From Candidatus Zixiibacteriota bacterium (GTDB lineage: Bacteria > Zixibacteria > MSB-5A5 > UBA10806 > 4484-95): DNA of 64,000 nt. Under the pieces are notes generated by a model, which was not told the origin of the DNA, searched no databases, and saw nothing but the letters and a program-made list of their open reading frames with translations. This document shows, piece by piece, positions 637 through 2,058 of the stretch (position 1 is the first letter of the stretch; each line of letters opens with the position of its first letter). Where the stretch lies: assembly GCA_037441845.1 (NCBI GenBank), contig JBBIRK010000006.1:148880-212879 (forward strand). The letters run 5' to 3'. The translations under genes and the position numbers were made by a program.

Positions 637-2058
637 TCAGCGAGTAATGACCGGATCGATCCGGCGGCGGCGATTGAAATCGACTGTTACTTTCGTACCG
701 ACGCCCAGCTCCGATTCCATTTTTATCGCGCCGCCGTGTTCCTGAACTATTTTATTGGCGATGAACAGCCCGAGACCTGTTCCCTCGGCCCCCTTGGCGG
801 AGAAAAAGAGGCTGAATGCCTTGTCGCAGGTTTCCCGATCCATACCTATGCCGTTGTCGATTATCTCGAACCGAAGTTGATCTTGCCGGTCGATCGCCCT
901 GATCGTCACTTCATGCGATTCTTTCGCCTTGTCCACCCTGCAAGCGTCGAGCGCGTTTTCCAGCAGGTTCACCATCATCGATCGGACCGCCTTGAGATCG
1001 GCCTCGAAATCGCCGATTTGCCCGTCGGTATCGATTTTCAAGTCGATTCGATGATCGGCCATTTTGGGTTTGATTATCGATTCTATTTCGCCGAGCAGCG
1101 TCCCCACGTCGATTAAGGCCCATTCCGGCTCGCGGTCTTTGGCGTAGTAAAGAATATCGAGCACCATGCTGCGGATGCGGGAGATATTTCTCTGGGCTAT
1201 TTCCCATCCCTGACGGATCCTTTCGCTGTTGTTCTGCTCCAGTCCCTTGTTCACCAGATAAGTCGCCCCGTCGAGGCCGTTCAACAAACCGCGGATTCCG
1301 TGCGAAATCGAGCTGATCAACAACCCGGTCTGGGTAAGCTTATCCTGGAGTTCTCTTATCATCGTGATATCGGTGCTCATCTCTATCACGCTTTCGATTT
1401 CGCCGGATTGATTGCGGATCGGAGCCGTCACCACCAGCACGTTCATCGGTTTGCCGTCCTGCGAGGTTACGATTTCCTCGCTCGAATGTGGAAGGCCGTC
1501 GGCGAACGTTTCCTGGACCATGCAGGGCGTACATTCGCGTTGGCGATGCTTATAGACCTTATAGCATTTTTCGCCGTAGTGGCAGCCGAAAGATTCCCGA
1601 TGCAAACGGTTCGCCTCGATTATCCGCAGCTGGCGGTCCTGAATCGATATGAAGCACGGAACTTCCTCGAAAAGCTGCCTCAAGCGCTCCTGGCTGAATC
1701 TCAACTGATTCTGAAGCGAATGCAGTTCGGTGATATCGGTCGACATTTCCATCACCGCGACTATGTTGCCCGAATCATCGAAAATCGGAGTGGTGTTCAC
1801 CAGGACCCAGATCGACCTGTTTTCGAGATTGGTGACCAGCTCCTCGCTTTCATGACTTTGACCATCGCGGAACGTTCGTTCGATCGGGCATCTTTCGCAT
1901 TTGTCCGGCCGCCTCTTATACATCTGGAAACAATGGCGCCCATTGAACTCGCCGAATTCCCGGACGAAGCGGTCGTTGGCTTCGATTATGCGGAAATCGC
2001 GATCCTGCACGGTAATGTAGCAGGGCATCGATTTGAAATATCGCTGATACGATTCCAT
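637..2058 (-). CDS. Sensor histidine kinase with two tandem cysteine-rich PAS-like domains and a C-terminal HisKA/HATPase_c.
   Basis: The C-terminus has an H-box (SISHGIRGLLNGL) and ATPase motifs (DNGIGMD, GTGLGLFIA). There are two repeated roughly 110-aa modules. The first is MPCYITVQDRDFRIIEAN...HCFQMY...DKCERCP...MEMSTDITE. The second is VPCFISIQDRQLRIIEAN...GCHYGEKCYKVY...ECTPCM...IEMSTDIT. Each carries 4-5 conserved Cys. Confidence 0.75.
   Translation of the reverse strand: MESYQRYFKSMPCYITVQDRDFRIIEANDRFVREFGEFNGRHCFQMYKRRPDKCERCPIERTFRDGQSHESEELVTNLENRSIWVLVNTTPIFDDSGNIVAVMEMSTDITELHSLQNQLRFSQERLRQLFEEVPCFISIQDRQLRIIEANRLHRESFGCHYGEKCYKVYKHRQRECTPCMVQETFADGLPHSSEEIVTSQDGKPMNVLVVTAPIRNQSGEIESVIEMSTDITMIRELQDKLTQTGLLISSISHGIRGLLNGLDGATYLVNKGLEQNNSERIRQGWEIAQRNISRIRSMVLDILYYAKDREPEWALIDVGTLLGEIESIIKPKMADHRIDLKIDTDGQIGDFEADLKAVRSMMVNLLENALDACRVDKAKESHEVTIRAIDRQDQLRFEIIDNGIGMDRETCDKAFSLFFSAKGAEGTGLGLFIANKIVQEHGGAIKMESELGVGTKVTVDFNRRRRIDPVITR

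Follow-up and report, generated by a model that had tools for sequence, protein, structure and literature searches.

A gene at 637..2058 (minus strand) of the window, our term for the whole 64,000-nucleotide stretch analysed here (Candidatus Zixiibacteriota bacterium, assembly GCA_037441845.1, contig JBBIRK010000006.1, positions 148,880 to 212,879), encodes a sensor histidine kinase of 473 residues in which two PAS domains precede the dimerisation and phospho-acceptor (DHp) helices and a HATPase_c catalytic domain. This architecture is given by the open reading frame, by Pfam and NCBIfam domain calls made at the databases' own cut-offs, and by an AlphaFold2 (AF2) model; all feature coordinates were confirmed by translation. 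PAS1 (residues 1-119, 1702..2058, minus strand) matches Pfam PAS_4 over residues 8-113 and PAS2 (residues 120-238, 1345..1701, minus strand) has a Pfam match over approximately residues 124-235, so that the PAS fold is recognised twice above the gathering score (PAS_4 85.6 bits, PAS_9 80.7 bits). The DHp helices follow at 1129..1344 (minus strand), with the codon of the phospho-acceptor His253 at 1300..1302, and the HATPase_c domain occupies 673..999 (minus strand; Pfam, 80 bits, residues 354-462). The ATG at 2058 is taken as the start because residues 4-10 are conserved in orthologues, which places PAS1 at the very N-terminus, and the kinase contains no transmembrane or signal segment; it is a soluble, cytoplasmic sensor histidine kinase with tandem PAS domains. 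For the AF2 model, based on 111 homologues, the mean predicted local distance difference test score (pLDDT) is 86, above 90 for each PAS domain; the PAS succession of strands and helices appears twice and leads into a long DHp hairpin, with the ATPase domain last. PAS2 modelled alone reached a pLDDT of 93.5 and a predicted template modelling score (pTM) of 0.84. The two PAS domains align to each other gaplessly at 45% identity (E 7e-37). The initial annotation, which described a histidine kinase with duplicated, mutually alignable PAS modules, was therefore right in this respect, and the motifs it quoted are present (MPCYITVQDR and VPCFISIQDR, DKCERCP and ECTPCM, MEMSTDIT and IEMSTDIT), except that its C-x-x-Y is really C-x3-Y (C43 to Y47, C165 to Y169).

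The catalytic half has both hallmarks of a histidine kinase, the DHp histidine and the ATPase boxes. His253 is invariant in a species-level set of 83 orthologues (51-63% identity), and the ATPase domain has the invariant residues N364, N368, D401-x-G-x-G and G426-T-G-L-G-L. The DHp domain is nonetheless divergent: its Pfam HisKA match is sub-threshold (21.9 bits versus a cut-off of 26.9), no HisKA_3 match was obtained at E <= 0.1, and the H-box, S-I-S-H-G-I-R-G-L-L (1282..1311, minus strand; family pattern S-H-G-I-[KR]-G-L-L), is atypical and lacks the canonical H-[ED]-x-x-[NT] form. The residue after the histidine is Gly in 65 of the 83 orthologues, Asp in nine, Asn in four and Ser in three, and the H+4 position, canonically Asn or Thr, is Gly in all but one (82/83). 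Directly after the N-box (N-x-x-E-N-[SA]-x-D-A-C-R) stands Cys373 (codon 940..942, minus strand), a cysteine in 83/83 orthologues and possibly an additional redox-sensitive site close to the ATP pocket.

PAS1 contains four cysteines (13, 43, 54 and 57) and PAS2 five (135, 159, 165, 176 and 179), with the spacing C-x29-C-x10-C-x2-C common to both domains. The cores are C43-x10-C54-x2-C57 in PAS1 (CFQMYKRRPDKCERC, 1888..1932, minus strand) and C165-x10-C176-x2-C179 in PAS2 (CYKVYKHRQRECTPC, 1522..1566, minus strand), and the remaining position of the common spacing is Cys13 (codon 2020..2022, minus strand) or Cys135 (codon 1654..1656, minus strand), each at the start of strand A-beta. Seven of the nine cysteines, C43, C54, C57, C135, C165, C176 and C179, are invariant both in the 83 orthologues and in a second conservation set of database homologues (121/121 rows), in an alignment whose mean column identity is approximately 65%; judged by these alignments, the pattern is far beyond chance. 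The other two vary. C159 is replaced by Thr, Ser, Asn or Asp in relatives, and C13 is Cys in 60/83 orthologues (72%) and Gly, Ser or Ala in the other 23, in which no compensating cysteine was found. The count of four to five cysteines per domain given previously is thus correct, and the refuting condition set in the initial annotation, a lack of cysteine conservation in homologues, does not hold for seven of the nine. A metal, Fe-S (iron-sulfur) or thiol redox sensor, as had been suggested, is with such conservation still the most reasonable reading.

The same cysteines define a wider family. PAS2 alone, searched against 1.84 billion cluster representatives, gave 1316 matches at E <= 1e-10, and C-x(9-11)-C-x2-C is present in 142 of the best 150 representatives at 50% identity, in one to five copies. 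Close relatives of the kinase contain two to four tandem copies with a period of 122 residues, and the hosts of the module include REC-PAS-PAS kinases, HAMP-PAS-PAS kinases and multi-PAS kinases of up to 1900 residues. Because the A-beta cysteine is restricted to closer relatives, the defining core of the module is three cysteines: of the four-cysteine constellation proposed at first, the core of three holds across the family and the fourth is variable in PAS1. Environmental anaerobes have thousands of predicted kinases with this Cys-PAS module, which is often repeated two to five times within one protein.

The position of the cysteines in the fold bears on the nature of the site. Secondary structure assigned by DSSP to the PAS1 model comprises strands 14-18, 23-27, 69-76, 82-93 and 99-108 and helices 29-35, 43-47 and 58-65, and in the models C54/C57 and C176/C179 lie at the N-terminal end of helix F-alpha. 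A PDB search with the single PAS2 sequence yielded marginal PAS matches only; a profile search gave alignments to LOV and KCNH PAS domains, which served only to place the cysteines. In these, C43 and C165 align with the photoactive cysteine of LOV domains (LOV1 GKNCRFLQG) in a G-x-x-C context, so they point into the cofactor pocket. This alignment would also suit a flavin-binding redox PAS of the NifL or LOV type in which the cysteines are accessory, for example through an adduct at the LOV-equivalent residue. Beyond the Gly and Cys, however, the LOV signature G-x-N-C-R-F-L-Q-G is not kept, the consensus around the first core cysteine being G-R-x-C-[YF]-Q-[VM]-Y-K. The LOV I-beta Gln presumably lies opposite an invariant Ser (aligned by hand to a LOV2 sequence), and a flavin would leave three further invariant cysteines per domain unexplained. 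We regard it as highly improbable. Covalent c-type haem was also considered and rejected, as neither C-E-R-C-P nor C-T-P-C-M is followed by His and there is no signal peptide. The C-C-x10-C-x2-C motif of the [2Fe-2S] protein FhuF has the same spacing, which is all that it shares with the kinase, the fold being unrelated.

To our knowledge, PAS sensors containing Fe-S clusters are known from few proteins only, namely NreB and OrpR. NreB has a HisKA_3-type DHp domain and a NarL-type partner, NreC. Its PAS motif is C-x2-C-x11-C(-x2-C), located in a helical segment between strands, and the cluster is [4Fe-4S] in Staphylococcus carnosus and [2Fe-2S], bound by three cysteines and a labile sulfur ligand, in Bacillus licheniformis (PMC13478379). 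Like our protein, NreB is a soluble PAS kinase with cysteines, there cluster-binding, in a helical region of the PAS domain, a variant site of three cysteines exists in both families, and the first and last cysteines, numbered backwards from the strand that follows the helices, stand at the similar distances of -26/-12 in the kinase and -26/-11 in B. licheniformis NreB. The order of the motif is reversed, however (C-x2-C-x11-C(-x2-C) versus C-x10-C-x2-C), NreB has one PAS domain where the kinase has two, and the divergent HisKA-like DHp of the kinase and its CheY-like partner receivers, of which one is part of an oxidoreductase fusion, are unlike those of NreB. No sequence relationship to NreB was detectable in PDB sequence searches. 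The comparison with a duplicated NreB-type PAS made in the initial annotation must consequently be given up: with a core of C-x10-C-x2-C plus an A-beta cysteine, no HisKA_3 domain, and receivers that are CheY-like single domains or fused to a CCG protein, the kinase is not a member of the NreB family.

OrpR is comparable at the level of the PAS domain. In OrpR of Desulfovibrio vulgaris Hildenborough, the PAS domain holds a redox-sensitive [4Fe-4S] cluster whose ligands are three conserved cysteines, C52, C61 and C65, spaced C-x8-C-x3-C (PMC8359166). In 12 of the related loci described below, sigma-54 activators near the kinase genes carry C-x8-C-x3-C-x2-C, that is the OrpR spacing, in a PAS domain. 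Aligned by hhalign with the PAS of these activators, PAS2 gives a probability of 93% (E 3.5e-7) and PAS1 80% in the same register, in which C165, C176 and C179 fall opposite three of the four activator cysteines: C165 at the position of C52, C176 at that of C65 and C179 at the fourth. OrpR C61 corresponds to a position within an insertion of two residues, which is absent from the kinase PAS. Both are cytoplasmic PAS domains of anaerobes with conserved cysteines between strand B-beta and helix F-alpha, and the PAS domains with the OrpR motif share with the kinase the local motif G-R-x-C-[HY]-[EQ]-V-[FY] at the first cysteine. The kinase differs in that it lacks the C-x8-C-x3-C spacing and the sigma-54 AAA+ and helix-turn-helix (HTH) output of OrpR, having DHp and HATPase_c domains instead, and in that its PAS is duplicated and has the extra A-beta cysteine. 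These activators (e.g. locus L034:2655-4388) lie within a few kb upstream of the conserved genes and have an N-terminus resembling ArsC or a low-molecular-weight phosphatase.

The cysteine arrangement would also accommodate zinc. Each PAS domain could bind Zn(II) through its cysteines so as to steady the E-alpha/F-alpha region, sensing, if any, then occurring by zinc release when the thiols are oxidised. A C-x2-C pair with two distant cysteines is the classic Zn(Cys)4 arrangement, the C-x2-C loop blocks have pLDDT values of 91-94, as would be expected of a tightly packed knuckle, and the zinc-binding cytoplasmic PAS domain of the kinase WalK offers a precedent, though with other types of ligand (10.1101/405365). 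Yet the fourth PAS1 ligand is Gly, Ser or Ala, unreplaced, in 28% of orthologues, and the wider module family keeps three cysteines only. Known three-cysteine Fe-S sites tolerate such an uncompensated loss (23/83); a structural Zn(Cys)4 site would be less expected to do so. That the cysteines lie in the cofactor pocket and align with the OrpR-type Fe-S motif likewise favours a cluster, and the hosts, going by the titles of their genome records, appear to be mostly anaerobes rich in Fe-S sensors. We consider zinc unlikely.

The genes around the kinase indicate what it may be connected to. It is the last of four genes on the minus strand separated by 63, 2 and 27 bp, of which the first (4581..5411) encodes a DNA-binding protein of the HTH_17/MerR type (Pfam HTH_17 and MerR) with a centre of seven cysteines and a degenerate receiver-like domain (weak Response_reg match), the second (3828..4517) an integral membrane subunit resembling HmcE and TmcC (NCBIfam HmcE E 2e-12, TmcC E 1.4e-8, below cut-off), and the third (2086..3825) an HmcF/TmcB/DsrK-like protein with two [4Fe-4S] motifs (Pfam Fer4_8), a CCG domain and a C-terminal receiver (Response_reg, residues 457-569). 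A single-domain receiver resembling DVU0259 and DivK is encoded divergently upstream (5578..5952, plus strand; Pfam Response_reg 84.6 bits, NCBIfam DVU0259_DivK 121.6 versus a cut-off of 160). The neighbour at 2086..3825 had been called DsrK-like. It scores far below the NCBIfam cut-offs of all three relatives (HmcF 302.9 of 750, TmcB 298.7 of 735, DsrK 248.7 of 400) and is not DsrK, the true DsrK of the window being encoded at 18865..20538 (minus strand, 740 bits).

To examine the conservation of this neighbourhood we used a scan of one genome per species, which found a kinase relative in several hundred genomes, the best 80 serving as related loci. They belong to Zixibacteria, Ignavibacteria/Kapaibacteria, Gemmatimonadota, Acidobacteriota, Planctomycetota, Calditrichota, Fibrobacterota, Myxococcota, Thermodesulfobacteriota, Deferrimicrobia, Abyssobacteria and others. 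A database search gave thousands of kinase relatives, and the best 120 full-length ones, at approximately 60% identity, have no public label other than 'PAS domain-containing sensor histidine kinase'. In 70 of the 71 loci with enough flanking sequence, the kinase gene is immediately preceded by the gene for the CCG protein fused to a receiver (CCG-REC; median gap 47 bp), which itself follows the HmcE-like gene in all loci where the flank suffices. A receiver (PF00072) is present on 120/120 of the best homologues of the CCG protein. Its 70 near-full-length orthologues all keep the cysteines of the second [4Fe-4S] motif, those of the CCG domain (C327, C362, C363, C402 and C405) and, in the receiver, D461, D462 and D505; for the four cysteines of the first [4Fe-4S] motif the count is 67-68. 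The order of enzyme then receiver in this protein is unusual, and public labels call it 'response regulator' or 'Fe-S oxidoreductase/CheY-like'. In the HmcE-like subunit the only invariant histidines are H81 and H189; it is presumed to anchor the CCG protein and to provide a quinone or haem b site for it.

The single receiver gene lies directly downstream of the kinase in 59/73 loci (median gap 45 bp), in contrast to its divergent upstream position in the source genome. In 55-56 of 62 loci a Macro-domain gene is found 0-127 bp upstream of the HmcE-like gene, and the usual cassette thus has five genes. This gene, of about 180 residues and of the ADP-ribose-binding or hydrolase type (e.g. L069:4911-5450 and L004:6954-7505), is absent from the window and from the close relatives L001-L003. 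The HTH gene is less common: of the 80 loci, about 18-20 have it upstream of the cassette. Its product, with cysteines at positions 97, 111, 114, 124, 141, 145 and 148, is a candidate for a second regulator of the Fe-S or thiol kind. Eleven other loci encode a MerR/SoxR-like protein whose tail is similarly rich in cysteines. With the DsrMK, HmcEF, TmcBC and HdrED modules the partner genes share the combination of a membrane subunit and a cytoplasmic CCG protein with two [4Fe-4S] motifs; they differ in their scores far below cut-off, the C-terminal receiver, membership of a two-component cassette, and a distribution in phyla well beyond the sulfate reducers. Literature searches gave nothing relevant on the cysteine motif, on HdrD, DsrK, HmcF or CCG proteins fused to receivers, on the cassette, or on DVU0258-0260. 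The conserved cassette is an uncharacterised system, and the kinase motif is distinct from the arrangements in NreB and OrpR.

These partners raise another explanation, in which the PAS cysteines are free of metal and form reversible disulfides, for example within C-x2-C, their redox state being set by the HmcE/HmcF-like module. By a logic like that of ArcB, the state of the quinone pool would be imposed on the cysteines through the CCG domain, with the receiver tethering the enzyme to the kinase. ArcB is membrane-bound, and quinones directly oxidise two cysteines in its PAS region, upon which intermolecular disulfides form. PAS-region cysteines let the respiratory chain's redox state govern the activity of ArcB, as would be the case for our protein. 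The kinase, however, is soluble with three to four clustered cysteines per PAS where ArcB has two, and a link to quinones would need the separate HmcE/HmcF-like module. Lacking a membrane segment it has no direct contact with quinones, a point that we count in favour of such a switch, as we do the near-inseparable pairing of kinase and CCG-REC genes and the invariant cysteines of the CCG domain, which in HdrD and DsrK is where disulfides are reduced. DsrK acts on a disulfide or trisulfide of the protein DsrC, whose two cysteines are also 10 residues apart. C54/C57 and C176/C179 stand just before F-alpha, as in a C-x2-C of the thioredoxin type. On the other hand, four buried, invariant cysteines converging on the PAS pocket suit a metal site better, and the same three-cysteine module occurs in many large multi-PAS kinases. 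A disulfide switch seems to us quite unlikely.

The analysis establishes the domain architecture, the duplication, the invariant cysteines with their place in the fold, and the conserved gene neighbourhood; what the cofactor and the signal are, and which way information flows, we infer. Our preferred reading, held with about even confidence, is a redox sensor kinase whose PAS pockets hold a Cys-ligated metal centre, most likely an Fe-S cluster, and which is wired to a membrane redox module. In each pocket the three invariant cysteines on the E-alpha/F-alpha side (C-x10-C-x2-C) would be the cluster ligands, with a fourth from the start of A-beta that would be obligatory in PAS2 and dispensable in PAS1, giving a four-cysteine and a 3(+1)-cysteine site, respectively. 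Oxidation, reduction, loss or ligand exchange of the cluster, possibly triggered by redox potential, O2, NO or reactive sulfur, would alter the packing of the PAS domains and so change the activity of the DHp (His253) and ATPase domains. Phosphoryl transfer would then be directed to the receiver of the adjacent CCG protein, which is the probable phosphorylation partner and would be anchored by the HmcE-like subunit, and to the single-domain receiver, such that the kinase would connect the redox state of the cytoplasm with a membrane module for electron transfer. In the source genome the HTH protein with its cysteines and receiver-like domain could add a transcriptional output.

Several observations weigh against this proposal. 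The kinase motif equals neither of the characterised Fe-S PAS motifs, of NreB and OrpR, exactly, and the sigma-54 activators that link it to OrpR are presumed orthologues by motif and architecture. A C-x2-C at the N-terminus of a helix is equally typical of zinc knuckles and redox-active dithiols, and the nearest solved folds are flavin-binding PAS domains. Normal autokinase chemistry is moreover not assured, as most orthologues have no acidic residue after the histidine and no polar residue at H+4.

The identity of 51-63% across more than 10 phyla, together with the locked gene order, implies a core physiological role in sensing or controlling the respiratory redox state. Were the cofactor and the link to the partner confirmed, the kinase would represent a new class of redox sensor, and the CCG protein the first CCG-type oxidoreductase to be under direct two-component control or to serve as a two-component input. 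A bolder version of the latter, rather unlikely in our estimate, is an undescribed, phylum-spanning relay in which the membrane HmcE-like and CCG module reads the quinone pool or transmembrane redox state and passes it to the PAS cysteines or Fe-S clusters of the kinase. The CCG-fused receiver would here be a docking and feedback element, the Macro-domain protein and the single receiver completing the circuit, and a respiratory enzyme module would itself be the sensor of a two-component system and not just its target.

The adjacent gene, taken for DsrK-like, had led to the suggestion of a sensor of sulfite, sulfide or redox state. Beside the cassette, at 6234..7358 (plus strand), lies a full-scoring qmoC gene (432 bits, cut-off 300), which stands alone, the qmoA/qmoB-like hdrA genes (28622..32156) being over 20 kb away. 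In the 80 related loci no QmoC homologue was found near the cassette outside three near-identical contigs, so that a general redox signal fits better and the sulfur link is only local. The window contains a dissimilatory sulfite reduction island (16530..28259, minus strand), the dsrMK(JOP), dsrAB and qmoAB-like genes lying within 16.5-32 kb. In addition to dsrK it encodes, all on the minus strand, an NrfD-type DsrP-like protein (16530..17687), a ferredoxin-type DsrO-like protein (17695..18477), DsrM (20475..21470), a cobyrinic/sirohydrochlorin a,c-diamide synthase (24196..25647), DsrB (25934..27016) and DsrA (27054..28259). A tetrapyrrole biosynthesis cluster at 7689..14684 (minus strand), preceded by a MazG-like gene, comprises a hemL-like aminotransferase gene, hemB, a cobA/hemD fusion, hemC, a precorrin-2 dehydrogenase-like gene and hemA, and between the hem and dsrMKJOP genes lies one for a CoA-disulfide reductase-like flavoprotein with a C-terminal rhodanese domain (14715..16448, minus strand). 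PADLOC gave no meaningful matches and an anti-phage defence system was dismissed; no structured RNA in the window reached an Rfam gathering score. On the other side of the kinase, 175 bp downstream, a TauE/sulfite-exporter gene (1..462, minus strand) is cut by the start of the window; it shares 82% identity with the TauE gene located after the kinase in L001.

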